A stretch of 19,616 nt of DNA from NCBI GenBank assembly GCA_049972095.1, contig JBMFKQ010000002.1, positions 69,021 to 88,636 of the forward strand, read 5' to 3'. The notes beneath the pieces are model-generated. The model was given only the letters and a program-made list of their open reading frames with translations. It had not been told where the DNA came from and did no database searches. This DNA is from Elusimicrobiales bacterium (GTDB taxonomy: Bacteria; Elusimicrobiota; Elusimicrobia; Elusimicrobiales; UBA9959). Each line of letters opens with the position of its first letter. Within the stretch, counting starts at the first letter, position 1. A program made the translations under genes and the position numbers. Positions 860-19,403 of this stretch are shown here, piece after piece.

Positions 860-1303
860 TTGAAAGATATTGTTTTAAGATATCCGGTGAGTTATGATAT
901 TGAGGTGATAAGATATGTCTCATATATGATGACATCTGATTTCTGGGTTTTTGTAAGTAAATCCGGAAATTTCTTTCAAATAAGGCTTACTCCAAAGAAA
1001 GATGGTGTATACGATCTAAGAAAAATTAAAAAAAGATTTGAAGATGAGTTAAAATACGAGATATTTAGAAAAAAACTCTTAGATAAAAATGCTGATTTCA
1101 GGTTTCACATAATAAAAAAGGCGATTACCTATACCCCACCCTCTCAAGAGGAACTTCCAGATGCTTTAACACCAGAGGAGCAAAAAGAGCTTGAAAGGCT
1201 TATAAAAGAGGCTGAGGAAGAGATAAAAAAAGAACTTCAAAAGGAGAAGGATGATGATATTAGAAAAACATGGGAAGAAAAATACGGCAAAAAAGTTAGA
1301 TAA
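860..1303 (+). CDS. hxsD: HxsD-like His-Xaa-Ser system accessory protein with acidic C-terminal extension
   Basis: RFEDELKYEIFRKKLLDKNADFRFHIIKKA resembles the HxsD C-terminal helix pattern (F.NEL....LR........IR..I...A). Lies directly upstream of hxsB; tail ends ...IRKTWEEKYGKK. Confidence 0.6.
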   Translation: MKDIVLRYPVSYDIEVIRYVSYMMTSDFWVFVSKSGNFFQIRLTPKKDGVYDLRKIKKRFEDELKYEIFRKKLLDKNADFRFHIIKKAITYTPPSQEELPDALTPEEQKELERLIKEAEEEIKKELQKEKDDDIRKTWEEKYGKKVR

Positions 1304-2720
1304 CACTCTCTTTGTAAGATGGAAAAAGATATCCAAAAACAAAGTTATAATGACAAATGATTTTGGAGGCTATATTATCCTTAAAGAAAAAGACCTCAAT
1401 GATTATATATCTAACAAAATAACTAAAAAACACAGACTTTACAAAGAGCTTTCAGAAAAGGGGTTTATAAAAACATTTATGGATTTTGACTCACTTTTCA
1501 GAAAGTGGAAAGACTTAAACTCATATCTTTTTACAGGCCCTTCACTTCATATAATTGTAATAACTCTTAGGTGCAATCAGAGATGCATTTACTGTCAAAG
1601 TCAAGCAGTTGGAATGAAAGATACAGACACTGATATGAATATTAACACAGCAAAAAAGGCTGTTGATACTGCTTTTTTATCACCTTCGAAAAACCTGATA
1701 ATAGAGTTTCAGGGTGGAGAGCCGCTTGTAAACTGGGATGTAGTTAAGAAAACAATAGAATATGCAAGGGAAAAAGAAAAAAAATCAGATAAGAGACTTT
1801 CACTATCGGTTGTCACAAATTTCTCGCTAATGGATGAAAAAAAGGCAGAGTTTCTTTTGAGAAATGAGATTTCACTCTGCACATCTCTTGATGGACCTAA
1901 GAGACTCCACGAGTCAAACAGGATATATTCAGGCTCAAGCTCTTATGAGCTTGCGGTTAAATGGATAAAATACTTTAACAATAAATATGAAAAACAGCAT
2001 GGACTTTCTTATAGGATATTCAAGCCATCAGCCCTTTTGACTGTTTCAAAAAAATCACTTGACTATCCTAAAGAGATAGTTGATGAATATGTTAAAAATG
2101 GCCTTGAAACCATTTTTATAAGACCACTTTCCCCAATAGGATTTGCCAAAAAACATTGGAATATTATAGGATATACTCCTGATGAGTTTGTAGATTTCTA
2201 CAAAAAAGCTCTTGAATACATAATAAAACTGAATATAAAAGGTAAAATACTTTACGAGAAAACAGCTCAGATGCTTTTAAACAAAATAATAAACTCAAAA
2301 GACCATGGATTTACTGATCTTAGATGTCCATGTGGTGCTGCAACAGGACAGATAGCATACAACTTCAACGGTGATGTCTACACCTGCGATGAGGGAAGGA
2401 TGGTGGGATGGGAAGGGGATGAATCGTTTAAAATAGGAAATCTTTTTAGTGATTCATACTCAAAACTTATAAACTCCCCAATAACAAGGATATGTATGCA
2501 TACATCAAACCTTGAAAATCAACCAAGATGCTCAAGATGTCCTTATATGCCGTGGTGTGGGGTTTGTCCTGTTGTTAACTACGAATCACAGTCTAACTTT
2601 TGGGGTGATAACTTTACATCATCAAGATGTGCTATAATGATGGGTATATTTGATACACTCTTTGAGTTTATGGAAAACAAAAGTTATTCCAAGGTTCTTA
2701 ACGACTGGGTAAAAATCTAA
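1251..2720 (+). CDS. hxsB: His-Xaa-Ser system radical SAM/SPASM maturase HxsB (copy 1)
   Basis: CNQRCIYC, IEFQGGEPL, CTSLDGP, FIRPLSPIGFA, DLRCPCGAATGQIAYNFNGDVYTCDEGRM and SPASM-type CSRCPYMPWCGVCP...RC. About 95 aa N-terminal extension; RBS aaggagaagg before ATG 1251. Confidence 0.85.
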   Translation: MMILEKHGKKNTAKKLDNTLFVRWKKISKNKVIMTNDFGGYIILKEKDLNDYISNKITKKHRLYKELSEKGFIKTFMDFDSLFRKWKDLNSYLFTGPSLHIIVITLRCNQRCIYCQSQAVGMKDTDTDMNINTAKKAVDTAFLSPSKNLIIEFQGGEPLVNWDVVKKTIEYAREKEKKSDKRLSLSVVTNFSLMDEKKAEFLLRNEISLCTSLDGPKRLHESNRIYSGSSSYELAVKWIKYFNNKYEKQHGLSYRIFKPSALLTVSKKSLDYPKEIVDEYVKNGLETIFIRPLSPIGFAKKHWNIIGYTPDEFVDFYKKALEYIIKLNIKGKILYEKTAQMLLNKIINSKDHGFTDLRCPCGAATGQIAYNFNGDVYTCDEGRMVGWEGDESFKIGNLFSDSYSKLINSPITRICMHTSNLENQPRCSRCPYMPWCGVCPVVNYESQSNFWGDNFTSSRCAIMMGIFDTLFEFMENKSYSKVLNDWVKI

Positions 2721-2734
2721 GGTGTGAGGTAAAG

Positions 2735-3013
2735 ATGAAGTATGAAATAGATCTTGACATATACTCGGCTGATGCTATAAAAATAGCAAAAAACATTATA
2801 GACAAAGAAGATCTCATAAAGATAAATATAAAAGATGAAAAGGCTGAGGCAATATTCGACGAAAAAAATATAACCTTATTTAATAATCTTATGAACGAAG
2901 CATTATCACAGCAATGCAGGATAGATACATCAAAGAAAAACTCAAAAGTAGCTGAGCTTTTGACAACTCTTGTTATACTTTCTGCCCTTGGAAAAGGAGG
3001 AGGCAAAAAATGA
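2735..3013 (+). CDS. hxsD: HxsD-like small protein (copy 2)
   Basis: 92 aa. N-terminal IDLDIYSADAIK and C-terminal FNNLMNEALSQQCR match the HxsD pattern; RBS gaggt upstream; follows hxsB. Confidence 0.65.
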   Translation: MKYEIDLDIYSADAIKIAKNIIDKEDLIKINIKDEKAEAIFDEKNITLFNNLMNEALSQQCRIDTSKKNSKVAELLTTLVILSALGKGGGKK

Positions 3014-4071
3014 AAAAATATATAGTGTTTGGTATAATAATCGTTGCAGCAGTTATTATTCTGCTACAGATTAAAAGCAGAAAAACTCCTATAATTCAAC
3101 AACCAGAAACACAAACTGAGGAGCTAAAAATAGGAAAAGAAATTCCAAAGGATTATACCACTCCACCACCTGTTTCTACTCCTCCACCATCCATTGAGCA
3201 AACTGTATCACCAGAGTATATGCAGATGACTGGATGCACAAAAACATTCGAAGACATAATTTCAGGCTGGGGTAAGGAATGGGGACCACCACCAAGGAAG
3301 ATAACATCCCCCATTCAACAACTAACATTATCCCCTCAGCAGACTAACAAAATAGTAGAGCTTCTAAAGGATTACCTTTTATGTGAGGCAATTGCCAATA
3401 AAGACCCATCAAAGTGTGATAGGTTTACACCGACAAAAGAAGAATGTACAAAGGTATATTATGAGTATCAGTTTAATGAGTTTTTTATAGGTGCAAATAA
3501 AAACGAAGCTGATTGTAAAAAATACCTAGAGATGGAGATACGTGATGAAAAGGAAAATCGGATACGTACAAGTGATTCCTGGCGTTTTTCATCTCTAAAT
3601 CTTAGCCCAGATAAAATTTGCTCCGAAATAAAAAATGATATAAGAGGGATATGTGATAGACTTTTCACAAACCCATCAGAAAGAAAAAAATGCTACACTG
3701 TTTTCCCTAAGAATATACTTGATGGGTGCCCAATGCCCAACAAAGAAGAATGCGTTAAAGCATATGAGAATATAAAAACTACAGGAAAATATGATTGCGA
3801 GTTTCTCGAAAAAGGCTCGGAAGAGTTATGTAAAATCAGAAAGATAGGAGGTGTTATATGTAGAGAAAAACTCAACAAACTTCTTTCGACATACTGCTCA
3901 TACCTTGCTGATCTTGAGGAAAAAAGGAAAAGAGAAGAAGAAAAGCTTAAACAAGCACAGGAGGAGGAAGAAAGAAAAAAGTTAGAGGGAGAGATAATAA
4001 AAAAGGCAAAGCAGGCTGCAGAGGAAGAAAAAAGATTTAGGAGGAAAAGAGGGGGTGGTGATGAAGAATAA
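3010..4071 (+). CDS. Membrane-anchored or secreted Cys-rich hypothetical protein with C-terminal charged coiled coil
   Basis: MKK plus hydrophobic stretch (YIVFGIIIVAAVIILL), Pro/Thr linker, 14 Cys, E/K/R-rich helical tail. ATGA overlap with the upstream gene. Confidence 0.75.
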   Translation: MKKYIVFGIIIVAAVIILLQIKSRKTPIIQQPETQTEELKIGKEIPKDYTTPPPVSTPPPSIEQTVSPEYMQMTGCTKTFEDIISGWGKEWGPPPRKITSPIQQLTLSPQQTNKIVELLKDYLLCEAIANKDPSKCDRFTPTKEECTKVYYEYQFNEFFIGANKNEADCKKYLEMEIRDEKENRIRTSDSWRFSSLNLSPDKICSEIKNDIRGICDRLFTNPSERKKCYTVFPKNILDGCPMPNKEECVKAYENIKTTGKYDCEFLEKGSEELCKIRKIGGVICREKLNKLLSTYCSYLADLEEKRKREEEKLKQAQEEEERKKLEGEIIKKAKQAAEEEKRFRRKRGGGDEE

Positions 4072-4396
4072 AAAAGCAAAAGAAAGCATAAAAAAATATC
4101 TAAAAAATTATCTAACAAGTGAAGAAGGAAAAATCCTTGATAGTGATGTTGTAAAAACTGCAATTGCCTTAGGGATTATTGGTGCATCACTTCCACAGGA
4201 AGCTGAGGCAGGTGTCTTTCATACAAATTACTTTACAGGAACACGGCATGTCTCCCATTCATCACATGGTTCTCACTCATCTCATGGAGCACATGGATCA
4301 CATTCATCTCATGGAGCTCATGGAGCACATTCATCTCATGGATCTCATGGATCTCATGGATCTCATGGATCTCATGCACGCGGTGGATGGTGCTGA
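4061..4396 (+). CDS. hxsA: His-Xaa-Ser repeat precursor peptide (HxsA-like), 111 aa
   Basis: ATG 4061 behind ggggtggtg is preferred over GTG 4055. Leader MKNKK...YLTSEEGKI...TAIALGIIGASLPQEAEA, then a core of 15 His-led triplets (11 HxS, 3 HGA, 1 HAR) and terminal GGWC; embedded among HxsB/C/D-like genes. Confidence 0.88.
   Translation: MKNKKAKESIKKYLKNYLTSEEGKILDSDVVKTAIALGIIGASLPQEAEAGVFHTNYFTGTRHVSHSSHGSHSSHGAHGSHSSHGAHGAHSSHGSHGSHGSHGSHARGGWC
4247..4381 (+). repeat. Coding 9-bp tandem repeat array (15 units) encoding the His triplets
   Basis: Units such as catggatct, cattcatct and catggagca. Four perfect catggatct copies at 4337-4372; 27-bp higher-order units starting at 4265, 4292 and 4319. 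Confidence 0.92.
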
Positions 4397-4461
4397 TGAC
4401 TAAAAAATAATAAAGAATTTACATAAATATATTAGACAAAAGTGAGTCATAAAAAGTAGAA

Positions 4462-5481
4462 GTGAAAATACTATCCACAATTGATGCCATAAAAAAGTTT
4501 GGTTGGCCATATACAAACCCAAAATCATGCGAGCTTACACTTCACTACTCCTGCAATGCAAAATGTATCTTTTGCTATACTGAGTATCCCCAAACACAAT
4601 TATCTTCCCTATCCATTGATTTAAAAAAAGCGGCACTTCATATGAAAAAATCCTATGAAAATGGCTCAAGACTATGCCAGATAATAGGAGGAGAGCCAAC
4701 AGTATATCCAGAGCTTGAAAAGATAGTATCAATTGCAAGAAAAATTGGATATCCCATAATTCAGATAGTGACAAATGGTATAAATCTTTCAGACTACAAA
4801 TTTGTCAATAAGCTAAAAAAAGCAGGGTTAAACTCAATAACCTTTTCCATCCACTCTCATAATCCTAAAACCCATGACAGAATAGTAGGTATTAAAGGGG
4901 CATTTTACAAAGTTTTAAAAGCCATAGAAAATGTCATAAAGGAAGAAATACACATAACTGTTGGAACAGCTGTAAACTTGCTAAACTTCAAGGATATACC
5001 TCATCTTGTAAAATACTTTCACAAAAAATATGCCATAGAAACATTTCACATAATAGGGCTCCATATAATAGGAGAGGTAAAAAAAAATAAAGAAAAACTT
5101 ACAGTTCCATACTCTACAACCCTTCCCTACATAAAGCAGGCAGTAGAATATCTTGCCTTGCATAATGCATTCCCACTATCTCCGATTCTTTCCAACTACA
5201 CTCCATGTCTTTTGCCGGGATATGAAGGGCTTATATCTGATTGGAAGATTCCATTCTCAGATGATGACCTTATACTACCTCAAAAAACTTATTACAACCA
5301 AATGTATACAATGATAACTCAAAATTTGAGAATTAAGACAAAAAGATGTGAAAAATGTATATATTCAAAAATATGCGCTGGTTTTGAAAAAAAATACTAT
5401 GAAGAGTTTGGAGACAAAGAATTTAAACCGCTAGATAAAATCCATAGCCCCCCAAAGATATCGTGCTTTTACAAAAGATGA
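4462..5481 (+). CDS. HxsC-like radical SAM protein
   Basis: LHYSCNAKCIFC, IIGGEPT, IVTNG, FSIHSH...HDRI, YTPCLL and C-terminal CEKCIYSKICAG...Y...FG..EFKP tail; GTG start. Confidence 0.82.
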   Translation: MKILSTIDAIKKFGWPYTNPKSCELTLHYSCNAKCIFCYTEYPQTQLSSLSIDLKKAALHMKKSYENGSRLCQIIGGEPTVYPELEKIVSIARKIGYPIIQIVTNGINLSDYKFVNKLKKAGLNSITFSIHSHNPKTHDRIVGIKGAFYKVLKAIENVIKEEIHITVGTAVNLLNFKDIPHLVKYFHKKYAIETFHIIGLHIIGEVKKNKEKLTVPYSTTLPYIKQAVEYLALHNAFPLSPILSNYTPCLLPGYEGLISDWKIPFSDDDLILPQKTYYNQMYTMITQNLRIKTKRCEKCIYSKICAGFEKKYYEEFGDKEFKPLDKIHSPPKISCFYKR

Positions 5482-6653
5482 AGGAAACTGAAAATCTCAA
5501 TACTCTGCCACATGACCATATAATATCAATAGGAAATATATGTAACAGCAACTGTCTTTACTGTGCAGCTAAAAATAAAAATGAGACAAAAAATCAGATT
5601 GATGAAGATACCTCATATAGAATAATAGACTTTATTCTCTCAAAATCACCCCAGTATATATATCTTGAGCTAACTGGTGGTGAGCCATTTCTCATAACAG
5701 AAAAACTTGAAAAAATGCTTAATTATTTTGAAAAAAAAACTAAAGAGAAAAAAATCAAAAAACATATATCAATTGTATCAAACCTAACAAAACTTACTGA
5801 TGATGACATAAAACTCATCCTTAAATACCGAATAACTATATGCACATCTCTTGATGGACCAAAAGAGCTTCACAATCTTCAAAGAGATGGAATTAAAGAT
5901 GCATACTCAAAACTCTCATCATCAATAAAAAAAATTCAATACTATGCTTCAAAAGGTATAATAGAACAACCCAATCTGATAACAACGATAACCAAATTCT
6001 CTCTTTCTTTTTATAGAGAGATAATAAATGAATATCTAAAGCATAACATCACAAGGGTTCAGCTGGGAATGATTGAGCCAATAGGAAAAGCCAATGAAAT
6101 ATGGGATAGGATAGGAATAACATCAGAGGAATACATAGAATTTTATGAAAAAGCATTTGATGAGATAATCAGAATAAACCATGACAGAGAAATACCAATA
6201 TATGAAAAAGGTTTCTTTCTACTCTTAAAGACTATGAAACTAAAAAAATACCATCCTAAAAGAAGCATTCCAATCTTAAACAGACTTTCTTATGATCACA
6301 ATGGAAACATATACCCTGATGATGAGTCAAGAATGCTTTGTGAGGATGGAAAAAAGGATTTCAAATTGGCAGATGTATCTATGTCTGTAAAGAGATTTTT
6401 AAACTCTGAAAATGTAAAAGAGATTCTCAAATACTCAACAACAAACAAATATGATCAAAACTGTAAAATGTGTGCTTATTCTAACTACTGCCATATCCCA
6501 ATATGGCACAGATATCTTTACTCAGATATATCATCTCCCTCAAAAACACCAAAGTGCAAGATATTTAAATTTATCTTTGATCTTATAAACCAGTCTCAAA
6601 AAGACAGATTATTAAGTAAGATAATGAAAAGATGGCTTGAGATTTATGAATAA
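5478..6653 (+). CDS. Divergent HxsB-like radical SAM protein lacking the N-terminal extension
   Basis: ATG 5478 forms an ATGA overlap with the upstream stop. CNSNCLYC, LELTGGEPF, CTSLDGPKELHN, YDHNGNIYPDDESRML, CKMCAYSNYC...KC. Confidence 0.8.
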   Translation: MKETENLNTLPHDHIISIGNICNSNCLYCAAKNKNETKNQIDEDTSYRIIDFILSKSPQYIYLELTGGEPFLITEKLEKMLNYFEKKTKEKKIKKHISIVSNLTKLTDDDIKLILKYRITICTSLDGPKELHNLQRDGIKDAYSKLSSSIKKIQYYASKGIIEQPNLITTITKFSLSFYREIINEYLKHNITRVQLGMIEPIGKANEIWDRIGITSEEYIEFYEKAFDEIIRINHDREIPIYEKGFFLLLKTMKLKKYHPKRSIPILNRLSYDHNGNIYPDDESRMLCEDGKKDFKLADVSMSVKRFLNSENVKEILKYSTTNKYDQNCKMCAYSNYCHIPIWHRYLYSDISSPSKTPKCKIFKFIFDLINQSQKDRLLSKIMKRWLEIYE

Positions 6654-7554
6654 AAAACTTGATATAAAAATAACATTCAACTGCAACAATAGATGCGATT
6701 TCTGTGCACAAGGCTCAAAAAGGGAATATATAAAACCAAAGTCTTTTGAGGAGATAAAAAAAGCACTTTATGATGGCATAAAATCAGATGCAGGAACAGT
6801 AGTTCTTACGGGGGGAGAGCCAACCCTACATCCCGAGATAGTAAGAATTGTGAAAGAGGCAAAAAAAGCAGGTTATACAAGGATACAGCTCCAGACAAAT
6901 GGAAGAACACTTTGTAATGAAAGATTTCTAAAAGAATTGGTTTCAGCTGGTGTAAATGAGATAAGTCCAGCAATCCATGGGCCAAATTCACAAATTCATG
7001 ATATGCTAACACACTCACCTCAAAGCTTCAATCAAACCATTACTGGAATAAAAAATGCCAGAAAACTTGGAATATATGTTTTAACAAATACAGTAGTAAA
7101 TTCAGTTAATTATAAATATCTTCCGGAAATAGCAAAACTTCTTGTCTATTTAAATGTAAATCAGTTTCAATTCGCCTTTATACACATAGTAGGAAGGGGA
7201 TGGGAAAACAGAAACTGGATTGTTCCAAAAAAAACAGATGTTATGCCATACATATATAAAGGGCTTGAGATAGGAAGATCTGCAAAAACTCCATGCTACA
7301 CTGAGGCAATACCATACTGCATGATGCAGGGATATGAAGAGCATGTGGCTGAAAGAATAATACCGGATGGTCCTGTTGTTGACGCTGATGTATTTGTTGA
7401 AAACTTTGGAGAATACAGAAGAATAGAAGCAAAAGTCAAAGGCCCTCAATGTAAGGAGTGTTTTTATTACAATATCTGTGAAGGCCCGTGGAAGGAATAT
7501 CCTGAGATATACGGCTGGAGTGAGTTCAAACCTGTAATTAAAAAAAGAAAATGA
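6646..7554 (+). CDS. HxsC-like radical SAM protein
   Basis: ATG 6646 (MNKKLDIK) preferred over TTG 6637. CNNRCDFC, LTGGEPT, LQTNGR, IHG...HD.LT, IPYC, CKECFYYNICEGPWKEY...YGWSEFKP. Confidence 0.85.
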   Translation: MNKKLDIKITFNCNNRCDFCAQGSKREYIKPKSFEEIKKALYDGIKSDAGTVVLTGGEPTLHPEIVRIVKEAKKAGYTRIQLQTNGRTLCNERFLKELVSAGVNEISPAIHGPNSQIHDMLTHSPQSFNQTITGIKNARKLGIYVLTNTVVNSVNYKYLPEIAKLLVYLNVNQFQFAFIHIVGRGWENRNWIVPKKTDVMPYIYKGLEIGRSAKTPCYTEAIPYCMMQGYEEHVAERIIPDGPVVDADVFVENFGEYRRIEAKVKGPQCKECFYYNICEGPWKEYPEIYGWSEFKPVIKKRK

Positions 7555-8951
7555 TAATTGATATACTTTTTGAAAAGATAGATGAGAATAATTATTTTAT
7601 ATCATCCCACAGCGGGGCAAATACATTTCTTAAAAAAAATGAATTTATATCAGTAGTTGAAAATAGAATGCCTTCATATCTTTTTAGAAAACTCTATACT
7701 CTTGGAATGATAGTTGGCAAAGAAAATGAAAAAAGATACATATCAAACTACCTTAAGCTCAATAGATACCTATTTTCTCCACCAACACTTCATATAGTCG
7801 TGCTTACAACAAAATGCAACCATGCATGCGTCTACTGCAGAGCAAAACCAGAAGGGACAAAAATCATTGATATGAATTTCAAAACAGCACAAAAAACTAT
7901 TGACTTTATATTCTCTGTTCCATCAGATCATATAACTGTTGAGTTTCAAGGAGGAGAATCTTTCATAAACTGGAAGGTTTTTGAGGAATCTGTATTATAT
8001 ATAAATGAGAAAAACAGAAAAAAAGCTAAGGATGTCCTTATAACCATTGTTACAAATCTCTCACTTATGAACAGCAAAAAACTTGAGTTTATAATGAAAA
8101 ATAATATATCGCTATGCACATCACTTGATGGTCCTTGTGAGATACACAATACAAACAGAATCTATTTTGCTCAAGATTCGTACAAAAATACTATTCTTTG
8201 GCTTTCAAAAATTATTAAGCTTACATCAACTATAAAAAAAGGACAACCCGATTCTCTTCCCTCAGCTCTAATGACTACCACAAGGATCTCACTTAAGAGA
8301 TGGAAGGAGATAATAGATGAATATAGAAATCTTTCTCTTGGTGGCATATTCATAAGACCACTCTCTCCAATAGGATATGCATCATCAAGATGGAACGAAA
8401 TAGGATATACCCCTGATGAGTTCCTTGAGTTTTATGAAAAATCTCTTGACTATATAATAGAAATAAATAGAGAAGAAAAATTTATTGAAAGAAATGCAGC
8501 CATAAAACTTAAAAAAATACTTTTTAACGAAGATCCAAACTATCTTGATCTAAGAAGTCCATGCGGATCAGTCATAGGTCAGATGGCTTATTATCCAGAT
8601 GGAGGTATATACACATGTGATGAAGGGAGGATGATAGAAAACAAAGGAGAAAACATCTTTAAAATTGGAGATGTTTTCTCTTCATCATATAAAAGTATAA
8701 TTAAATCGCTAAAATCAAAGGCTGTTATTTATAGTTCTAACATAGATATCTATCCTCAATGCTCAAGGTGTGCTTTTAAACCATATTGTGGGGTGTGCCC
8801 AGCTTTTAATTATTCTACAAAAGGCTCCCTTATCAATATAGATTTCTCAAATTATTGGTGTGTAATTGAAAAGGGTATTTTCAAGATACTTATAAAAAAG
8901 CTGATGAAAAGGGAGATAAAAGATATATTTATGAGGTGGTTTGATGCCTGA
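7551..8951 (+). CDS. hxsB: His-Xaa-Ser system radical SAM/SPASM maturase HxsB (copy 2)
   Basis: PTLHIVVLTTKCNHACVYC, VEFQGGE, FIRPLSPIGYA, YLDLRSPCGSVIGQMAYYPDGGIYTCDEGRM, CSRCAFKPYCGVCP. Clear full-length paralog of 1251-2720. Confidence 0.85.
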   Translation: MIIDILFEKIDENNYFISSHSGANTFLKKNEFISVVENRMPSYLFRKLYTLGMIVGKENEKRYISNYLKLNRYLFSPPTLHIVVLTTKCNHACVYCRAKPEGTKIIDMNFKTAQKTIDFIFSVPSDHITVEFQGGESFINWKVFEESVLYINEKNRKKAKDVLITIVTNLSLMNSKKLEFIMKNNISLCTSLDGPCEIHNTNRIYFAQDSYKNTILWLSKIIKLTSTIKKGQPDSLPSALMTTTRISLKRWKEIIDEYRNLSLGGIFIRPLSPIGYASSRWNEIGYTPDEFLEFYEKSLDYIIEINREEKFIERNAAIKLKKILFNEDPNYLDLRSPCGSVIGQMAYYPDGGIYTCDEGRMIENKGENIFKIGDVFSSSYKSIIKSLKSKAVIYSSNIDIYPQCSRCAFKPYCGVCPAFNYSTKGSLINIDFSNYWCVIEKGIFKILIKKLMKREIKDIFMRWFDA

Positions 8952-9837
8952 CATATCACTGTGGAATAAATGTAATAACAGATGCATAATGTGCACAAAT
9001 CCAAGAGATTATTCTAATTCAGATCCATATGGTAATTATGATTTAAAAACCCAGATAAAAAAAATAAATCTTTACCTTCAAGGTAAAGATGATGTTTTTT
9101 ACCCAAACCACAAAAGAAAAGACTATATAAACATAACAGGTGGAGAGCCAACCCTTCATCCAAATTTTTTTCATCTTATAAGATACTTTTCTGATAAATT
9201 TAAAAAAACACCAATAACACTTTTAACAAATGGTAGAAGGTTTTCGGATGAAACATTTGCTAAAAAATTTTCAGCAATAACAAATGAAAGATTTACTGCT
9301 GCCATAAGTATTCATTCATACAGATCTGATGTCTTTGACAAAATAACAGGAGTAAAAAAAAGTTATCATCAAACAATATCAGGACTTATGAATCTTATGA
9401 AATACTTTTGTGGAAGTATAGAGATAAGAACTGTTGTTCATAAACTCAATATAGAAGATTTAAAACAAACCATTCTTTTTGTAAAGGATCTAATGATAGC
9501 TTATAGAAATTGGTATCATGTTATTATACACTATGAGATAGAAGGAGTTGGTGAGGAAAATAGAAAAATAATAAAACTCAAACTTTCAGACTCTGCAAAG
9601 GTAATAGAAGAAATTGATGAAGATATATTAAAAGCATCAAACATAAGACTTTATCATTTTCCACTTTGTATACTTAATCCGAGACTCAGAAGATATGCAT
9701 GGAAAACACTTCCAGATAATGAGATTATTTTTACAAAAAAATGTGAAAAATGCATTTTAAAAAAGAAATGTCTTGGACTTATGAAAAGATATTATGAACT
9801 TTATGGAGACGATGAGCTTAAAACAGTTTGTAGATAA
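8944..9837 (+). CDS. hxsC: His-Xaa-Ser system radical SAM maturase HxsC (closest to the canonical form)
   Basis: CNNRCIMCTNP, ITGGEPTL, LLTNGRRF, EIRTVVHKLN, EIEG...N, LYHFPLCIL...AW, CEKCILKKKCLG. Immediately follows hxsB as in canonical hxsBC pairs. Confidence 0.8.
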   Translation: MPDISLWNKCNNRCIMCTNPRDYSNSDPYGNYDLKTQIKKINLYLQGKDDVFYPNHKRKDYINITGGEPTLHPNFFHLIRYFSDKFKKTPITLLTNGRRFSDETFAKKFSAITNERFTAAISIHSYRSDVFDKITGVKKSYHQTISGLMNLMKYFCGSIEIRTVVHKLNIEDLKQTILFVKDLMIAYRNWYHVIIHYEIEGVGEENRKIIKLKLSDSAKVIEEIDEDILKASNIRLYHFPLCILNPRLRRYAWKTLPDNEIIFTKKCEKCILKKKCLGLMKRYYELYGDDELKTVCR

Positions 9838-10999: not shown

Positions 11000-11919
11000 G
11001 GAAATTAAAAAAACTTGTAATATTCCTTGGCTATTCATGTAGCAACAACTGTGTCTTTTGCATAAACAGTCAAAGAAGAAACAAAATAAAAGACAAATCA
11101 ACACATGAGGTTTTAAAGGAGATCTATCTTGCTGCGAAAAAAGAAAAGGTTGATATTCTTGAACTGATAGGTGGTGAGGCAACAATAAGAAAGGATTTTT
11201 TTGAGATAATATCTACGGCAAAAAAACTCAAGATTCCAGATATAGTTATTGCAACTAATGGTAGAGCATTTGCAGACATAGACTTTTGTAAAAAAGCCTT
11301 AGAAGCCGGACTTTCTACCATAATATTTTCAATACACGGACATACACCACAGCTTCACGACAAACTTACAAGATCACCTAAGGCATTTTCTCAGATGATG
11401 AAGGGTATAGAAAACCTTAAAAAAATAGGTTTTTCAAGGATAAACGCTAACACAACAGTGGTCAAAACAAACTATAGATACCTTCCAAAAATAGCATTTC
11501 TTCATATAAAACTTGGAATAAGAGATGTTGAATATATATTTGTTGATCCCCAAGAAGGCGGTGCTAATGAAAATTTTGATAAGCTTGTGCCAAGAATATC
11601 AGATGCCTCAATTTATATGAAAAAGGCACTTGAAATAGGGATAAAAAACGGCTTTAATCACTGGAAGGTAAGGTATGTTCCACTATGCTACTTTTCAGAT
11701 TATCTTGACTACATTAGCGAGATAAATGAAGCAAAGCTTTTTAAATCAAAACACTGGGCACCTGATTTTAAGGATGATGATGTAGTTAAATCAAGGAAAA
11801 AATACGGGAGAACAAAGACAGAAAGATGTATAGGATGTAAGCTATATAATCTCTGTGAGGGAATATGGAAGGAGTATATAAAAAAATATGGAGACAGCGA
11901 ACTAAATCCAATAAAATAA
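10996..11919 (+). CDS. HxsC-like radical SAM protein (paralog of 6646-7554)
   Basis: CSNNCVFC, LIGGEAT, ATNGR, SIHGH...HDKLT, NTTVV..NYRYLP, VPLC, CIGCKLYNLCEGIWKEY...YGDSELNP. Confidence 0.85.
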   Translation: MRKLKKLVIFLGYSCSNNCVFCINSQRRNKIKDKSTHEVLKEIYLAAKKEKVDILELIGGEATIRKDFFEIISTAKKLKIPDIVIATNGRAFADIDFCKKALEAGLSTIIFSIHGHTPQLHDKLTRSPKAFSQMMKGIENLKKIGFSRINANTTVVKTNYRYLPKIAFLHIKLGIRDVEYIFVDPQEGGANENFDKLVPRISDASIYMKKALEIGIKNGFNHWKVRYVPLCYFSDYLDYISEINEAKLFKSKHWAPDFKDDDVVKSRKKYGRTKTERCIGCKLYNLCEGIWKEYIKKYGDSELNPIK

Positions 11920-12950
11920 ACAAGCTTTTTGTATATGTAACAAGCTCTTGTAATCTTAGATGCTCATACTGCTTTTATTCATCTTACAAAAAAAAGAAAA
12001 GCATATCTTTTGAAGCATTTAAAAGGGCATTTAAAAAGTTTTTAGACATATCAGAAAATCCAGAGGTTATTTTTATAGGTGGAGAGCCACTAATTGAAAA
12101 AGAAAAGGTAGTAAAAATGATGAGATATGCTGTGAAAAGTGCAAGAATAAGCATATTTACAAATGCAACGCTTATAGATAGAACCGTAGCAGATTTTATA
12201 AAACAAAACAATATAAATCTAATAGTAAGCATAGATGGAGATTTGAAAACAAATGATAGAAACAGAAGGTTTATAGGTTTTAAATCCTCGGTTTATAAAA
12301 GGGTTTTATCTGTGCTTGAAAAATATAACTTAAAGGACTACACATCAGTAAATATGGTTATAACCCCAAAAACTATAAATAGCCTTTCAAACAATATAAA
12401 ACATCTCTATGAAATAGGATTTAAATCCATAGGTATTTCCTTTGACTATTCATCTAACTGGTGTCAAAAATCAATCTTAATACTTAAAAAAGAGCTCAAA
12501 AAGGTTTTTATTGATTATCTTAAAATGATAAAAGAGCATAATGCATATAGATTTGCAAATATGTATGAAGTTTTTTATAAAATTAAGAATAAAAAAATAC
12601 CACCCTGCTCAAACCTAATACTCTTTCCCGACGGTAATTTTTATTTATGTGATAAAATAATATCTATGAATGAGAATGAGAGAAATCTTTTTAAAATAAA
12701 GAAGAATATCATCAGGGAAAGAGAAATCTTTTTTGATTTTATGAATAAAAATGAGATATCCTCATCACAAGGCTTCTGCCAGATTGGAATATATTTATAT
12801 CTGAAATATATAAAAAAATTGAATGATGATATAGTAAAACTGAGATTATTAGAAAAGTCTAAGCTTCAAAGCGAAATAGAAGAAATTTTAACAAATTATT
12901 TTACAAAACTACTTAAATTTAAATATTTTACAGAACTTCATAGAGTATGA
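11865..12950 (+). CDS. Radical SAM protein, third subtype (anaerobic sulfatase-maturase-like core with reduced auxiliary Cys set)
   Basis: YVTSSCNLRCSYC, FIGGEPL, VSIDG...NDRNR.F, PC...FPDGNFYLCD, GFCQIGIY. Similar to the two minus-strand enzymes. Confidence 0.82.
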   Translation: MEGVYKKIWRQRTKSNKINKLFVYVTSSCNLRCSYCFYSSYKKKKSISFEAFKRAFKKFLDISENPEVIFIGGEPLIEKEKVVKMMRYAVKSARISIFTNATLIDRTVADFIKQNNINLIVSIDGDLKTNDRNRRFIGFKSSVYKRVLSVLEKYNLKDYTSVNMVITPKTINSLSNNIKHLYEIGFKSIGISFDYSSNWCQKSILILKKELKKVFIDYLKMIKEHNAYRFANMYEVFYKIKNKKIPPCSNLILFPDGNFYLCDKIISMNENERNLFKIKKNIIREREIFFDFMNKNEISSSQGFCQIGIYLYLKYIKKLNDDIVKLRLLEKSKLQSEIEEILTNYFTKLLKFKYFTELHRV

Positions 12951-14119: not shown

Positions 14120-14766
14120 ATTTTACATTACTATAAAAGAAATATTTAGTCTCTCTAATTGATTAACATTTAATTAACCTACCACAAAAGTAAGGTTAAA
14201 GATATGAAAATAGAGAAAATTGAGAGAAATTATTAAATAATATCAAAGAAAACAGAAAAAAGGAAAGTTGTTATCATATCATATTCAGGTGGAAAAAGAT
14301 TTTCATATTGCAATAATCAAACTAATTGAAAAAGAATTTTTTTCTGTTTTTCTAAGCCTATTCTTGGAGAAAGAAATTTAAGATACCTTAACTGTCCTGA
14401 CTTGAGTGAGCTAATTAAAATAGTAAAATAACTAAAAAACTTTTAGAAGCAAACAAAGAAAAACTTGAAGAACCATTATCTAATTTTTTTATAGACTGTA
14501 GTTGTTCAATTATCATTGTTTAAAGATAATACCCAAATTTTCATAGATCAAATTAAAAAAATTCTTCATCATTATTATTATTCCAAAACCTACTAAATCC
14601 AAGTTTATCTTAAATTAATTAGTAATTAAGCAAATCTTGAGACATAAAAATAAGATGTGGAACAATTTTAAATTTTGGATATTGGATTCTGGAACATTAA
14701 AAGATAATACTTATAAAATCAAACATAATTTAATTTTAGTGAAAAGATGATGGGTGAGAAGTGAAA

Positions 14767-14995
14767 TGTAAGACATAAGCAATTTTAAGTATTGGATGTT
14801 GAATTTCAAATTTCGGAGTATGACAGAAGAATGTAGTGTGCTGGTATTTATTTTTACACAATCTCATAAACAAAATACACATCTAAAGAGAGGAATAACT
14901 ATAAAGGTATTTTAAAAGTGGTGATTCTCTTTAGATAGAAAAAAGAAAACAAAGAATTAACCCCTGAAAGGTCCCAAAACATATGTAATCCTACA
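14767..14995 (+). mobile_element. Degenerate IS481-like remnant (TGT...ACA bounded)
   Basis: 14945-14995 matches the reverse complement of 19515-19565 at 37/51 positions ungapped (peptides ENKELTPERSQNICNPT vs ENKELTPENSKMYGDLT) and ends in ACA. Upstream FIFTQSHKQNTHLKR loosely resembles the integrase-core P.SP.QN.H.ER motif. The left boundary (tgtaaga at 14767) is tentative. Confidence 0.55.
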
Positions 14996-16076
14996 ACTTG
15001 AAATTTTTTATTATTTGTAGTAGAGATGCTGTATAAACGCGGGAAAAGTTTAATTGATTTATAAACCATTCTCGTGGACTTTGACCTGAAAATTTACAAA
15101 AGAAATATAAAGCCATAGGGCAATAAAAAAAAAGAAAAGAATCTTTAAAATTGTAGGTTATATATTTTTTTGCCTCTTTTAATAAACTATCCCTTTTATC
15201 CCATAAAATACCCTGCTTTATATTACCTATTGTAAAAGATTCATTATTACCCTTTGAAATAAATCTCATACACTCATCACATATATAATAATTTCCATCA
15301 GGGCCAACATTAATCTGTCTACACTCATGCCACCAGTATCTTCTTTCCAAATATTTTGTAACTCTTTTCCAAACATCTTCTATTTCTGGAAATGTTTTTG
15401 TTAGTTTATCCCATGTGAAATTTTCAGATAAAATAAAATGTTCAAATTTATTAAAACTGTGTTTTAAGTTAACTAAATCAACCTGTCTCCATTTAGTATA
15501 CATAACAGGAGTAAATCTTATTTCAGTAAAACCCAGTTTTAGTAATGATCTTATATTATTTGTAAAACTATTAAGAGTATTAATACTAAAAAACATTTTC
15601 GCATTTAATTGTGTGTGTTTCTTGAGTATAGGTATTACTCTTAATAATTTTTCATAAACTGAACTTTTGTTATTCAAAAATTGTCTATATTTATCATTTA
15701 TATTTCTCAAACCATCAATACTTACATAGATCTTTACTCCTTTTATGGTAAGGAATTTAATTCTATCCTCATTTAGGTTTGTCCCATTTGTTGTTATATC
15801 AATATTTATATCATAAGTTTTATACTTTAGCCTTATATAATCTATTATCCTTTCTATTGTTTTATAATACAAAAAAGGTTCTCCTCCAATTATAGAAATA
15901 TATTTGCGATTATAATTTGAAGAATAAATAATAAATCTGTCTATTGCTCTGTATAGCATAGCCACATCATCCAGCGTCTTTGAAATATTTTTATCTATAA
16001 AACAATATTTACACCTCATATTACATTCATTGGTCAGGTATAAATAAAGAGACTCTATATTATCAGCTTTGGTCAT
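14991..16076 (-). CDS. Radical SAM protein, third subtype
   Basis: YLTNECNMRCKYC, IIGGEPF, TTNG, VSIDG...NDKYR.F, WWHECRQINVGPDGNYYICDECMR, FFYCPMALY. Confidence 0.85.
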   Translation of the reverse strand: MTKADNIESLYLYLTNECNMRCKYCFIDKNISKTLDDVAMLYRAIDRFIIYSSNYNRKYISIIGGEPFLYYKTIERIIDYIRLKYKTYDINIDITTNGTNLNEDRIKFLTIKGVKIYVSIDGLRNINDKYRQFLNNKSSVYEKLLRVIPILKKHTQLNAKMFFSINTLNSFTNNIRSLLKLGFTEIRFTPVMYTKWRQVDLVNLKHSFNKFEHFILSENFTWDKLTKTFPEIEDVWKRVTKYLERRYWWHECRQINVGPDGNYYICDECMRFISKGNNESFTIGNIKQGILWDKRDSLLKEAKKYITYNFKDSFLFFYCPMALYFFCKFSGQSPREWFINQLNFSRVYTASLLQIIKNFKL

Positions 16077-17145
16077 TTAAACCTCTTTTGTAAATTTTAG
16101 ATACCTTTAGTAAGCCATTTACCATATTGATTGATATATCCAATAGGTGTCTCAATTTATAATAAGGATCTTCCTTACGATATTTACATAAAAAATATAA
16201 ACCTAAAGGACAATAAAAAAAAAACTGTGACCCTTTTATGTTTTTGATAACATATTCTCTTGCCTCTTCAATTAAAGACCTTCTCTTTTTAAAATCTATA
16301 CCTGTTCTTAAATCACCTACAACACCTTCGTTTTCTTCTAATGGTAGTCTCATACACTCATCACATACATAATACTTACCATCAGGACCAAGATTTAGCT
16401 GTCTACACTCATACCACCATGGAAGTGCTTTTTTAGTATAAAAAGGTAATCTTTTTAAAAAATCTTCAACATCTCGGAACTTAACATTTCTATATTTATC
16501 GACTATAATAGATATTTTCTCCAATTCTTTTTGTAACAATTTTAAAGACTTTTTGGAAAATTTTGTATATAGCTCAGCCAAGAGATGTATTTCTACAAAA
16601 CCTTTTTTAGCCATATATTCTATATTTTTGGAAAGAAAAGCTACATTTTTGGGAGTAACTACCATCTTTACACAAAAATCTTTAGATAAGTCTCTCCTCT
16701 GAAAAAGATTATTTAATATATTATGAACTGATTTAGATTTCTTTATTATAAACCTTCTATTTTCATCATTAACTTTCTTAATCCCATCCCAATTAACAGA
16801 TAAGTTAACTCTATATTTTTTAAACTCTTCTATTAAATTTTGGTTCAATAGTACTCCATTAGTGGTAAGCTCAAAGCTAAGATTCCGTACAGAAGAATAA
16901 TTCTTTACTAACCTAAGAATAGTATCAGAAATAAGCAATGGTTCTCCTCCTAAAAAAAGGATATGTTTAGTTGAACTTTTAGAAACTTTTAAAAAATAAT
17001 CAGTTGCATTTTTTAGATCTGTAAAAGAAAGTTTATATTTTCTTTTATCACTGAGATTATCCTTTAAGGCACAATACTTACATTGCAGATTGCATATATT
17101 AGAAGTATATATACTTAATTGATCTAAATTCTCCTTTTCAGTCAT
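16063..17145 (-). CDS. Radical SAM protein, third subtype (tandem paralog of 14991-16076)
   Basis: CNLQCKYC, FLGGEPL, TTNG, WWYECRQLNLGPDGKYYVCDECMR, FFYCPLGLY. Confidence 0.85.
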   Translation of the reverse strand: MTEKENLDQLSIYTSNICNLQCKYCALKDNLSDKRKYKLSFTDLKNATDYFLKVSKSSTKHILFLGGEPLLISDTILRLVKNYSSVRNLSFELTTNGVLLNQNLIEEFKKYRVNLSVNWDGIKKVNDENRRFIIKKSKSVHNILNNLFQRRDLSKDFCVKMVVTPKNVAFLSKNIEYMAKKGFVEIHLLAELYTKFSKKSLKLLQKELEKISIIVDKYRNVKFRDVEDFLKRLPFYTKKALPWWYECRQLNLGPDGKYYVCDECMRLPLEENEGVVGDLRTGIDFKKRRSLIEEAREYVIKNIKGSQFFFYCPLGLYFLCKYRKEDPYYKLRHLLDISINMVNGLLKVSKIYKRGLNDQS

Positions 17146-19403
17146 GACACTATTGGGATTATATCACAAAATCTTCCATCACTAACAGTTTTTTCATCTG
17201 ATATTCTTAAAGGAGATTTAAAATAATCCTCATGAGGACCAGGACAATGTGTTAAATATTTACACACCAAACATGACTCAAGTTTTATAATTTCTTCTTC
17301 ACTTTCTCTTGCATCTGGAATAAAAAGAAAGGACTCAAAAAGTTCTTCTTGTTTAGGATAAAGAAGACATGGTAAAGAATTTAAAATGACAGTTCTTATA
17401 CCAACAGCAGCTGCTTTATCTGCTATTGCAAAAGTATTTTCTTTAAGTTTCTTATAAAGTAAATAACAATCATTATCATAAGACCCAACAGGAAGGATAA
17501 ATAATAATCCATCCGCATTTTTCTTCTTAGACAATTTTATTTTATTCTCAAAATTTTTAAACTCTTTGTCTCCAAGCCCACAATAAAAGAAAAACTTTAT
17601 CCCGCTCTCTTTAAAAATTCTTAACTGGTTGTTTTCTTGCAATGATAAAGGAAGATAAACAAGAGACAAGCCTGCATTTTTAAGTCTTGTAGCATTATAA
17701 CTATTAAGATCATCAAAAGCAGGGCACATAAATGCTGAATCTAAACCTTTTTTACCTGCCATATAAACCATTAAATAGGCTTTCTTAAAAGATATAGGTT
17801 CAGAATCACAAAATACTATTTGTTTAAGACCCAAAGTTTTTTTATGAGAAATTTCAATAAAAATCTCTTCTAAAGGTCTTTCTTTAAGCCCATCTTTTGC
17901 TGCTATTAAATTATATAGAGTCAATCCTTCTCTTAAAAAGCAAAGTTTTGAATATTTGTTATGAATGTTTTTAAGAGATTTATTTTCACTTATTAAACTT
18001 TTTTCTTTCTTTTTCGCTATTCTTATATCAGCATATGAGGCAAGTTTGTAAATTATTTTAGGTGGGAAAAATACTGAACTAAGATCAAAAACTCCCTTAT
18101 TCCTGTTTTTAAGGATATAGCTGTCACAAGTTTTCAAAATCCTTCCCATTTCTAAAAGCCTTTTTAACTCAAGTCCAATCGTTTTTTCTGGTGATTTTCC
18201 AAATTTTTCTTTAAAATCTTTTAGGACCAGCTGACCTGTGTGCAAAAATTTTACTACCGCATAGTTGATTATCTCATCTTTTTTAGAAAGAAAAACAATC
18301 TTTTCAACCGGCAATAGTCCTTTTTCTATCAATGAAATATAACGACCAACATCAGAAACATTTTGATACCTCTGCTTACCAGCACAGTATGTTATTGAAC
18401 TCGCTCCAAGTCCAAGGGTAGAGTATCCTTTTTCTTCCTGCTGATCATAAGTATAGGGCCACTCTCCACCTTTTCCTTTAAAAATCCAATGACCACAACG
18501 CATAATATAACCCTTTTTTTCTATAAGCCAATCTATCCCCTTTTTGCGCCAAGCCCTTGCTTTGTCCATTGATTCACCATATAAGGAAGCGCTATGAAAA
18601 TCATTATAACTACTAAATTTCCTTGGTTGCCAGTCAAAAATATAAACACGCTGCAGTTCAAATTGGGAAAGAATCTCTATATCTCTCATAAAAATCTCTT
18701 CTGTTTGTCCGGGAAGTCCTACAATCAAATCAGCCTCAATATTTTCTATACCAGCTTTTATAGCATTATTTAAAGCATTAATTGCCTGTTGTTGGGTTTG
18801 CGGTCTACCAAGGCCCCTCATTAGTTCTTCATTGAAACTCTGGATTCCTATTGCAAGATAATTAACACCAAGCTCCTTTAGTTTAACAGCCTTCTGATAG
18901 GTTAGAGTATGTGGAGATGCTTCCATTGCTATTTTTGTTTGAGATGTAATAGTAAAGTTTTCTTTGAAAACTTTCATAAGAATCTCTAATTGTTTTTCTG
19001 AAAGTATAGTTGGAGTACCACCACCAAAAAAAAGAGCTCTTATAGGAAAATTCTTAAAAGCATCTTTAAAATAGATAGTCTCTTTAACTAAAGCCTTTAG
19101 GTAGTATTCTATTTCCAGATGACTATCTGGTATTTTTCTATAAAAGCCACAAAACTTACATATATATGAACAAAATGGAATATGAACATAAATAACTGGA
19201 TTTATGTTTCTGTTTTTGCTATTTGATTCCCTCCATAGTTTTACCACTTTTTCCGGCTTTATACCCATTACTCTATCCCATGAAAAAAATGGAGGATAGT
19301 TCGGTGGCATTTCCGGCAGCAAATTTTCATCACTTATAGCAAAAATCTTTTCCAAAAAGCCTTCATCAAAAATATCACAAGACAAAGTTTTATTCCTTTT
19401 CAT
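17142..19403 (-). CDS. HemN-like (class C-type) radical SAM protein fused to a degenerate HxsC-like domain
   Basis: VYVHIPFCSYICKFCGF, FFGGGTPT, GIQSF, DLIVGLPGQT, LGLGASS and a HemN C-terminal-like region. The last ~270 aa carry IVFCDSEP, NSLPCLL and CLVCKYLTHCPG without a CxxxCxxC. Confidence 0.82.
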   Translation of the reverse strand: MKRNKTLSCDIFDEGFLEKIFAISDENLLPEMPPNYPPFFSWDRVMGIKPEKVVKLWRESNSKNRNINPVIYVHIPFCSYICKFCGFYRKIPDSHLEIEYYLKALVKETIYFKDAFKNFPIRALFFGGGTPTILSEKQLEILMKVFKENFTITSQTKIAMEASPHTLTYQKAVKLKELGVNYLAIGIQSFNEELMRGLGRPQTQQQAINALNNAIKAGIENIEADLIVGLPGQTEEIFMRDIEILSQFELQRVYIFDWQPRKFSSYNDFHSASLYGESMDKARAWRKKGIDWLIEKKGYIMRCGHWIFKGKGGEWPYTYDQQEEKGYSTLGLGASSITYCAGKQRYQNVSDVGRYISLIEKGLLPVEKIVFLSKKDEIINYAVVKFLHTGQLVLKDFKEKFGKSPEKTIGLELKRLLEMGRILKTCDSYILKNRNKGVFDLSSVFFPPKIIYKLASYADIRIAKKKEKSLISENKSLKNIHNKYSKLCFLREGLTLYNLIAAKDGLKERPLEEIFIEISHKKTLGLKQIVFCDSEPISFKKAYLMVYMAGKKGLDSAFMCPAFDDLNSYNATRLKNAGLSLVYLPLSLQENNQLRIFKESGIKFFFYCGLGDKEFKNFENKIKLSKKKNADGLLFILPVGSYDNDCYLLYKKLKENTFAIADKAAAVGIRTVILNSLPCLLYPKQEELFESFLFIPDARESEEEIIKLESCLVCKYLTHCPGPHEDYFKSPLRISDEKTVSDGRFCDIIPIVS

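Follow-up and report, generated by a model that had tools for sequence, protein, structure and literature searches.

The final 19.6 kb of contig JBMFKQ010000002.1 (positions 69,021 to 88,636 in assembly GCA_049972095.1; 19,616 nucleotides, hereafter the window) belong to an uncultured hot-spring Elusimicrobia bacterium with a genome of 1.44 Mb (96.5% complete, 34% G+C), and the window DNA is also contained in hot-spring metagenomes of two studies. Seventeen genes (g2-g18), spanning 18.5 kb from 860 to 19403, form a much enlarged relative of the four-gene His-Xaa-Ser (HXS) system. Literature searches returned the HXS paper and its preprint, incidental mentions of HxsB and HxsC, and a paper on His cross-linking radical SAM enzymes, and no published description of such an expanded cluster. 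Probably (roughly 60%), the genes together form a single, vertically inherited pathway that matures one small repeat peptide in several steps and exports it, with a core homologous to HXS. This reading is drawn from the homology of the core to Hxs proteins, the presence of a single precursor, the operon-like packing of the genes, the recurrence of the locus, the non-redundancy of its paralogs, a structural model of its protease, and the precedent of HXS itself.

According to Li et al. (Nat Commun 2026, PMC13128918), HXS with its four genes serves in antiphage defence, keeping phage DNA from entering E. coli cells. In that account, E. coli HxsA undergoes N-terminal processing and a +8 Da change to one of its HxS repeats, and its site of action is the periplasm, where the processed protein is itself the effector; HxsC binds HxsD, and both the N-terminal processing and the +8 Da change require both radical S-adenosylmethionine (SAM) enzymes. 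The same source places 99.7% of HXS systems in Pseudomonadota, gives four genes for more than 99.8% of them, and reports the system in 27% of Klebsiella genomes. An initial annotation of the window had held that no product chemistry was established for Hxs systems, a statement outdated by this work.

Gene content and kinship with HXS

Fourteen closely packed genes (g2-g15) fill the plus strand from 860 to 14119, and three more (g18, g17, and g16) run along the minus strand from 19403 down to 14991 (Table 1). With open reading frames (ORFs) counted from their first possible start codon, 13 of the 15 same-strand junctions overlap, in keeping with the mostly overlapping starts and stops described initially. 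The order on the plus strand is D-B-D'-g5-A followed by C-B-C-B-C-protease-C-P-C, where A to D stand for the corresponding Hxs types and P for a PapB-like gene. The inventory comprises 12 radical SAM genes, two HxsD-like genes, a Cys-rich anchored protein (g5), a membrane protease (g12), and a His-repeat peptide (g6). Promoter and terminator scans of the locus returned nothing above shuffled sequence, and no RNA datasets are listed for it.

The ORFs were typed with NCBIfam and Pfam profiles, with 'equivalog' membership defined as a score over the curated cut-off. Three of the radical SAM genes are HxsB-type, five HxsC-like, three PapB-like, and one HemN-like; an intact CX3CX2C motif is present in all 12, and all 12 exceed the gathering cut-off of PF04055, so that both the number and the subtypes proposed at the outset hold. 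Of the 33 PF04055 matches in the genome, 12 lie within these 18.5 kb, where an even spread over 1.44 Mb predicts about 0.4; the concentration of radical SAM genes in the cluster is not chance.

Canonical HXS (TIGR03976-TIGR03979) and the Elusimicrobia cluster share an HxsB-type SPASM maturase (two here exceed the equivalog cut-off), HxsC-like and HxsD-like partners, an HxsD gene directly before HxsB, a precursor with His at every third residue, and an expected N-terminal processing before export. The cluster differs in having 12 radical SAM genes instead of two, two HxsD-like genes, and 17 genes in total, and it adds a GxGD protease, a Cys-rich anchored protein, and PapB-like and HemN-like enzymes. 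The proposal of a far larger Hxs variant built around one His-repeat peptide is supported by this inventory and by its recurrence. Neither of the refuting conditions checked here, a failure to hit Hxs models and an architecture confined to one genome, holds. Only two of the 12 enzymes score above an Hxs equivalog cut-off; the others are Hxs-like relatives rather than members. The best-scoring families for g6, g9, g13, and g15 are HxsA3 (NF038309), HxsA4 (NF038313), and HxsC4 (NF038332; 102-148 bits), and a literature search for a paper on the HxsA3, HxsA4, HxsC4, and HxsD_rel models found none. PADLOC, which holds no HXS model, gave only generic viperin-type radical SAM matches for the cluster.

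The two proteins above the HxsB cut-off, g3 and g10, both match PF04055 and PF13186 (SPASM), and the HxsB type combines CX3CX2C with a conserved C-terminal Cys. Among maturases of ribosomally made and post-translationally modified peptides with radical SAM/SPASM architecture (CteB 5wgg, SuiB 5v1q, TigE 8vpo, anSME 4k36), CteB is matched by g3 over its full length by fold. It is the top hit of the AlphaFold2 model of g3 (mean predicted local distance difference test, pLDDT, 86.7; 5wgg_A, E 1.6e-21, 479 alignment columns) and is also matched by sequence (E 1.4e-22), while TigE and SuiB are further full-length fold matches. Judged from the model, g3 is built like the three-domain, leader-dependent maturases such as CteB, and leader binding is predicted. 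The third HxsB-type protein, g8, matches only profile positions 74-466 of TIGR03978, about 70 N-terminal residues being absent. Ten relatives were fetched for comparison, selected for several HxsB matches on one contig, and their genes in the g8 position encode 416-476 residues.

HxsD homology of g2 and g4 is clear from their orthologs and from profile-profile alignment, in line with the two HxsD-like genes first reported. The g2 gene overlaps the start of HxsB g3 and scores 34.4 bits against TIGR03976, and its orthologs adjoin HxsB in all ten relatives. The g4 orthologs align to the g2 orthologs with 96.1% probability in hhalign (E 3e-9); all eight examined match TIGR03976 (best E 8.7e-15), and five of the eight match HxsD_rel (NF038315). 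The neighbouring g5 is, as first described, a Cys-rich membrane protein, with 14 Cys and an N-terminal anchor. It belongs to no Pfam, NCBIfam, or PADLOC family, has no structural neighbour above a TM score of 0.3, and matches only an Elusimicrobiota hypothetical cluster in the Atlas; orthologs were detected in six of the ten relatives, each between g4 and HxsA.

The repeat peptide and its candidate peptidase

The small protein g6 carries 15 His at a strict period of three in residues 65-107, within Ser-His-Gly repeats, and so corresponds to the single His-triplet peptide of the initial annotation. From the N-terminus it consists of a basic region, an FLxSEEGK leader motif, a hydrophobic helix, an AxA-like site, the repeats, and a C-terminal RGGWC. 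When 13 orthologs drawn from three families are aligned, they share an invariant S-E-E-(G)-K with F/Y-L before it, a basic N-terminus ahead of both, and after this leader a hydrophobic helix, the AxA-like site, H-x-N-Y-F, the repeat tract, and RGGWC, the last present in ten of the 13. The repeat tract varies strongly in length, and its flanks are constant. All 13 orthologs match HxsA4 and HxsA3 (best HxsA4 E 4.5e-29), and some may pass the HxsA4 cut-off. The canonical HxsA profile TIGR03979 gave no match to g6 at E ≤0.01 and matched one of the 13 orthologs at E 0.017. In the 96.5%-complete genome, g6 was the one HxS-repeat ORF detected by a six-frame scan, which speaks against the further (HxS)n precursors elsewhere that had been offered as an alternative.

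The basic leader and hydrophobic helix of g6 resemble a class III signal peptide. A likeness of the leader to Flp pilins was not confirmed by profile search and was set aside: Flp_Fap matched none of the 13 orthologs, and a search of the genome gave no match at the locus.

The membrane protease of the cluster, g12, is a divergent relative of the prepilin and preflagellin peptidases (MEROPS A24, FlaK 3s0x, PF01478). It shares with them the fold and two conserved Asp, the second in G-D-x-K; it differs in size, being roughly double FlaK and containing additional helices and an inserted soluble part, and in that its presumed substrate g6 is no recognised pilin. The AlphaFold model of g12 (pLDDT 80) has FlaK (3s0x_B) as its top match in VIA-align (Z 11.2, root-mean-square deviation 3.4, 172 of 186 residues), with the next match at Z 6.6, while Foldseek against the PDB returned nothing at E ≤0.001 and a weak match at E 3.2. 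D39 and G111-D112-x-K114 are invariant in ten of ten orthologs, which also keep K44, N47, and the run W-P-A-G-D112-x-K, and from their position D39 and D112 are predicted to be the catalytic pair. Within the genome, g12 is the second-best place for PF01478, after a canonical A24 peptidase on another contig (C22:28040). A homologue search with g12 gave 25 close relatives, all labelled 'hypothetical' except one Joint Genome Institute entry named as an ABC-type multidrug transporter subunit, and the family extends to 1224 representative clusters at E ≤0.001 in a large protein library.

A complex model of g12 with residues 1-62 of g6 reached ipSAE values of 0.77, 0.76, and 0.81 in three runs, against 0.00 for the best of three controls. 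Of 157 solved complexes, 116 attain the mark applied to this score, as do two of 215 mismatched pairs; these counts are only rough when own alignments are used. At least 92% of contacts are shared between the runs, with a partner pLDDT of at least 70. The modelled interface involves D39 and residues 43-47, 106-115, and 373-379 of g12 and residues 18-43 of g6, exactly the conserved leader motif and hydrophobic helix, so that the model sets the leader into the predicted active site. The complex model thus supports g12 as a candidate leader peptidase of g6, and fold, invariant Asp motifs, and model together agree with its early designation as a membrane protease.

The interplay of variable repeats and fixed flanks can also be read differently. 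If the peptide were a sacrificial scaffold, its Ser-His-Xaa units would be turned into a small molecule, such as a cofactor, a metal binder, or a modified histidine, and then excised as in pyrroloquinoline quinone (PQQ) or mycofactocin biosynthesis. Repeat numbers that vary widely between constant flanks are expected of interchangeable copies, solved structures matched by the HxsC-like profile include PqqE (6c8v) and MoaA, and presence throughout a family suggests a housekeeping product. The cluster has, however, no protease able to release many small units and no transporter, and its one protease, g12, is of the GxGD type and is modelled on the leader rather than on the repeats; the signal-like hydrophobic segment and the RGGWC of most orthologs fit an intact exported peptide, and in E. 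coli, according to Li et al. (PMC13128918), it is the processed HxsA protein that acts. A scaffold role is accordingly rated as very unlikely.

Recurrence, paralogs, and the outlying enzymes

The architecture recurs, as the initial annotation had asked to see checked. HxsB (TIGR03978) scores over its cut-off in the host genome; of 24 further genomes in the family, 23 likewise pass it, across 13 genera, and the lone genome below the cut-off is 60% complete. In two sister families, none of 16 genomes reaches it. Most carriers have two to four HxsB copies on a single contig, and a search for related loci with g3 returned two loci. Two modules are syntenic in all ten fetched relatives: the HxsD-HxsB-HxsA core is kept in ten of ten (g4 in nine), and the g9-g11-g12-g13 core of the g7-g15 run in nine, the contig of the tenth ending inside the run; some relatives lack individual genes of g7-g15. 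Among 301 sampled genomes of the phylum, the g12 profile is found in 46, with 19 of 21 in family f1, 23 of 27 in f8, three of four in f6, none of 88 in f2, and none of 89 in f15. Among five further g12 carriers, four have HxsB over the cut-off, three of them on the same contig, and two genomes of f8 hold HxsD, HxsB, a similar precursor, HxsC-like genes, and g12 together. The cluster is retained in the smallest sampled genome of the family (1.44 Mb, against 1.6-3.5 Mb).

The five HxsC-like proteins have HxsC or HxsC4 as best families (88-168 bits), with g11 nearest to canonical HxsC; g7 carries a C-terminal CX2CX5C besides CX3CX2C, and the roughly 90 C-terminal residues of g15 (window 13850-14119) form an extra domain absent from the other paralogs. 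A quick maximum-likelihood tree of 58 HxsC-like proteins places each window paralog in a separate clade: g7 with four rows (support 99), g9 with ten (100), g11 with nine (100), g13 with nine (99), and g15 with seven (100). The g9, g11, and g13 clades hold members from f8, the g9 clade including G113 and G310 of that family. The duplications are thus older than these families, since each paralog has its own clade and three reach into f8, and the paralogs are not redundant copies.

That many of the paralogs are redundant copies or decaying ones, in a cluster whose size means nothing for function, is therefore hardly credible. Such decay could be seen in the loss of the N-terminal domain of g8, in the loss of the cluster motif from the HxsC-like domain of g18, and in the insertion sequence (IS) activity visible at the locus. 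Against it stand the CX3CX2C motif kept in every one of the 12 enzymes, orthologs of the HxsC-like paralogs at 26-72% identity across genera, with three paralogs persisting across families, and retention of the cluster in so small a genome.

The remaining enzymes are PapB-like or HemN-like. The leading families of g14, g16, and g17 are PapB, CcpM, and the SCIFF maturase, which make thioether or Cys-rich peptides; g16 and g17 are paralogous (about 190 bits), and among 17 PapB-like sequences only CX3CX2C and one further Cys are conserved. The long g18 scores below cut-off against ChuW/HutW (176.8, cut-off 400), HemW (155.6, cut-off 205.4), and HemN (151.8, cut-off 324.95), and it matches HemN 1olt (E 7e-32) and NocN 9p2u (E 2e-18) in the PDB. 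Its C-terminal part of about 270 residues aligns with the HxsC-like proteins (hhalign 99.9%, E 3.7e-31, 265 columns) and has no CX3CX2C motif, so that by sequence comparison g18 is a HemN-like radical SAM enzyme in its N-terminal half joined to a full HxsC-like domain without the cluster. Long orthologs of 727-821 residues are present in four of the ten relatives, located between g9 and g10.

These features raise the possibility of a mosaic of independent systems, in which a compact Hxs core (g2-g6 with some HxsB and HxsC-like enzymes) matures the His peptide and the PapB-like enzymes, the HemN fusion, and perhaps some HxsC-like enzymes act on g5 or on peptides encoded elsewhere. The thioether and Cys-rich peptide families named above, together with a 14-Cys protein in the cluster, would suit such an arrangement, as would the placement of g16-g18 on the opposite strand between IS ends and the differing positions of HemN-type and PapB-like genes among relatives. 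Unrelated inserts also lie between the modules in some genomes, namely a shikimate operon in G022 and genes for a phosphoenolpyruvate (PEP)-utilising protein, an ATP-pyrophosphatase-like protein, and a B12 radical SAM protein in G019, and further HxsC-like genes of the host genome lie on another contig (C1:8260-10064). On the other hand, g14 and its orthologs sit inside a conserved g13-g14-g15 run in eight of ten relatives, a PapB-like gene directly follows HxsA in several, and the HemN fusion is tied to the Hxs enzymes by its HxsC-like domain and by its place between g9 and g10 in four relatives. No second small precursor is seen in the window, and g5 has an export anchor and neither a repeat nor a leader-like motif. 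On balance the mosaic is considered unlikely, and a single pathway is preferred.

The minus-strand genes are bracketed by inward-facing IS ends. The contig breaks inside a multi-copy IS, several copies of which lie at contig ends, and an inverted repeat pairs 14931-14978 with 19532-19579. This bracketing explains the AT-rich gap behind g15, the contig break, and the unusual place of the HemN fusion. The gap (14120-14990) resembles nothing in the fetched relatives, and the gene located behind g15 in those genomes has left no remnant in it; an ortholog of that gene, at 44% identity, lies on contig C1, adjoining another HxsC-like gene.

Table 1. Features of the window, with coordinates in window numbering and the main profile score or other basis of assignment.
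Feature	Coordinates	Strand	Basis
g2, HxsD-like protein 1, 147 aa	860..1303	+	TIGR03976 34.4 bits, E 2.2e-8 (cut-off 50)
g3, HxsB radical SAM/SPASM maturase, N-terminal peptide-recognition-like domain	1251..2720	+	TIGR03978 509.1 bits (cut-off 370)
g4, HxsD-like protein 2, 92 aa	2735..3013	+	hhalign, ortholog matches to TIGR03976
g5, Cys-rich protein, N-terminal membrane anchor, charged C-terminal tail	3010..4071	+	14 Cys
g6, HxsA-like precursor, 113 aa	4055..4396	+	HxsA4 NF038313 51.6 bits (cut-off 55), HxsA3 27.6 bits
g7, HxsC-like radical SAM	4462..5481	+	TIGR03977 107.9 bits (<267.9)
g8, HxsB-like radical SAM without N-terminal domain	5463..6653	+	TIGR03978 247.8 bits, below cut-off 370
g9, HxsC-like radical SAM	6637..7554	+	HxsC4 146 bits, HxsC 102 bits
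g10, HxsB radical SAM/SPASM maturase 2	7551..8951	+	TIGR03978 439.1 bits (cut-off 370)
g11, HxsC-like radical SAM	8941..9837	+	TIGR03977 168.4 bits (<267.9)
g12, divergent GxGD (A24/FlaK-type) intramembrane aspartyl protease, predicted	9794..10999	+	fold, invariant Asp residues
g13, HxsC-like radical SAM	10996..11919	+	HxsC4 147.6 bits
g14, PapB-like radical SAM (third type)	11865..12950	+	NF047865 139.9 bits (cut-off 340)
g15, HxsC-like radical SAM, C-terminal extension of ~90 residues	12947..14119	+	HxsC4 102.3 bits, HxsC 88.1 bits
g16, PapB-like radical SAM	14991..16076	-	NF047865 146.6 bits (cut-off 340)
g17, PapB-like radical SAM	16063..17145	-	NF047865 116.8 bits (cut-off 340)
g18, HemN-like radical SAM fused to HxsC-like domain	17142..19403	-	ChuW/HutW 176.8 bits, HemW 155.6 bits
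Gene-less AT-rich gap, with degenerate IS-end remnant at 14931-14996 (+)	14120..14990		no ORF of note, no Rfam
3' end of multi-copy IS transposase gene; contig breaks inside IS	19504..19616	-	at least 10 further genome copies

Three more radical SAM genes of the cluster's types lie outside the window. On contig C1, 8260-10064 (L031) holds two adjacent HxsC-like genes, including the ortholog just mentioned of the gene located behind g15 in relatives, and a PapB/HxsB-like gene stands at the very start of contig C19 (267-1334, L032). Two close relatives, G019 among them (L011:11649-15962), have three extra genes between their Hxs modules. These encode a protein of the PEP-utilising/PPDK_N kind, an ATP pyrophosphatase resembling diphthamide synthase, and a radical SAM enzyme that binds B12; they are absent from the window and may be additional tailoring genes. 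In one genus (G012, C3:77000-118000; G021, C36/C42), about 20 radical SAM matches form a run some 25 kb from the Hxs cluster. Groundwater Elusimicrobia are described as carrying radical SAM suites beside nitrogenase paralogs (bioRxiv 10.1101/765248), a different context; a link to these was discarded, the host genome having no NifH-family match over the cut-off.

Upstream of the cluster, positions 1-849 (+) encode the C-terminal part of an ORF of about 1140 residues that extends upstream to C2:66438, is Gly/Ser/Thr-rich and fibre-like, and has no family match. Before it comes a small protein that carries a Por_Secre_tail sorting domain, and weak look-alikes of its C-terminus adjoin HxsD in G005 and G007. 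Farther upstream, C2:49000-68999 (L030) encodes LptA/B/C-like, KpsF-like, KdsA, KdsB, heptosyltransferase, and LpxK proteins. This lipopolysaccharide and outer-membrane biogenesis flank is not kept in the relatives, and no functional conclusion is drawn from it.

Proposed pathway and biological role

The chemistry, cleavage, export, and role set out here are what we infer from the gene families, recurrence, paralog age, protease fold, and predicted catalytic residues computed above. The precursor g6 would be made in the cytoplasm, where its N-terminal region with FLxSEEGK would serve as the recognition leader for the HxsB-type maturases and for HxsC-like enzymes paired with the two HxsD-like helpers. 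The Ser-His-Xaa units may then pass through a series of radical steps, a separate one for each distinct radical SAM paralog. Cross-linking or the addition of carbon are candidate reactions, and the HemN-like enzyme would be the likely donor of the carbon. Among published radical SAM enzymes, HtkB and HaaB are described as linking His C2 to the C-beta of a residue two positions on (PMC11499958). The large enzyme set and the variable number of repeats suggest iterative, multi-step chemistry on each unit. The hydrophobic segment would bring g6 to the membrane, where the GxGD protease g12 may cut in or beside the SEEGK motif, and the modified His-rich product would end in the cell envelope, possibly together with g5. 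In this scheme g12 is a candidate for the enzyme behind the N-terminal processing seen in E. coli HXS.

A number of observations weigh against the single pathway. The core proteins fall short of several curated cut-offs: g6 lies just under that of HxsA4 (51.6 vs 55 bits); g2 and g4 (34.4 and 15.6 bits) do not reach the HxsD equivalog TIGR03976 (50 bits); and none of the five HxsC-like proteins reaches the HxsC equivalog TIGR03977 (267.9 bits; best g11 with 168.4, the others 88-108) or the 500 bits of HxsC4 (NF038332). Sequence support for the protease is weak, with PF01478 at 15.1 bits on g12 (E 0.025, gathering score 26.5) and matching one of ten orthologs (E 0.012), and an ordinary signal peptidase could cut g6 at the AxA-like site after its hydrophobic segment. 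The precursor itself, at about 100 residues and with 15 repeats rather than five, departs from E. coli HxsA, from which it also differs in its FLxSEEGK leader and C-terminal RGGWC and in the absence of a peptidoglycan-binding Pfam domain. The placement of g16-g18 on the opposite strand between IS ends, and the absence of clear orthologs of g16 and g17 from the ten relatives, point the same way; g6 need not be the substrate of the HemN fusion or of any of the three PapB-like enzymes. Presence in nearly all genomes of one family of Elusimicrobia is also unlike the patchy spread of HXS, so that an antiphage role may not carry over.

A more specific version of the pathway borrows from prepilin handling. 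Here g12 would remove only the short basic leader at SEEGK, and the hydrophobic helix would stay on the mature peptide to anchor it or to help in its assembly, while a chain of five to nearly 30 His units, cross-linked by radical SAM enzymes, would be displayed in the envelope. The system would then be a hybrid of pilin-style processing and peptide natural-product chemistry and a core trait of whole Elusimicrobia families, with the four-gene proteobacterial HXS as its stripped-down offshoot. This version is doubtful, and it is offered as a speculation.

Regarding the role of the product, a barrier in the envelope that stops phage DNA from entering, as it does in E. coli, and some other envelope- or metal-related function are regarded as equally possible, neither of them favoured, with a similar share left open. 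Phage defence is not assumed, because the cluster is near-universal within families and is found even in a 1.44-Mb genome.

HXS has been studied as an antiphage system only since 2026, and two questions posed by it concern its radical chemistry and which enzyme is responsible for trimming HxsA. The Elusimicrobia version offers an enzyme set many times larger and a built-in candidate leader peptidase, and its small, soluble-looking precursor may be easier to handle than E. coli HxsA, so that both questions become directly testable in it. The cluster is thus relevant to the biology of radical SAM enzymes and of phage defence alike. For the organisms themselves, near-universal presence in the family, including a genome of 1.44 Mb that places 12 of its 33 radical SAM genes at this locus, argues for an important role, which may not be phage defence.

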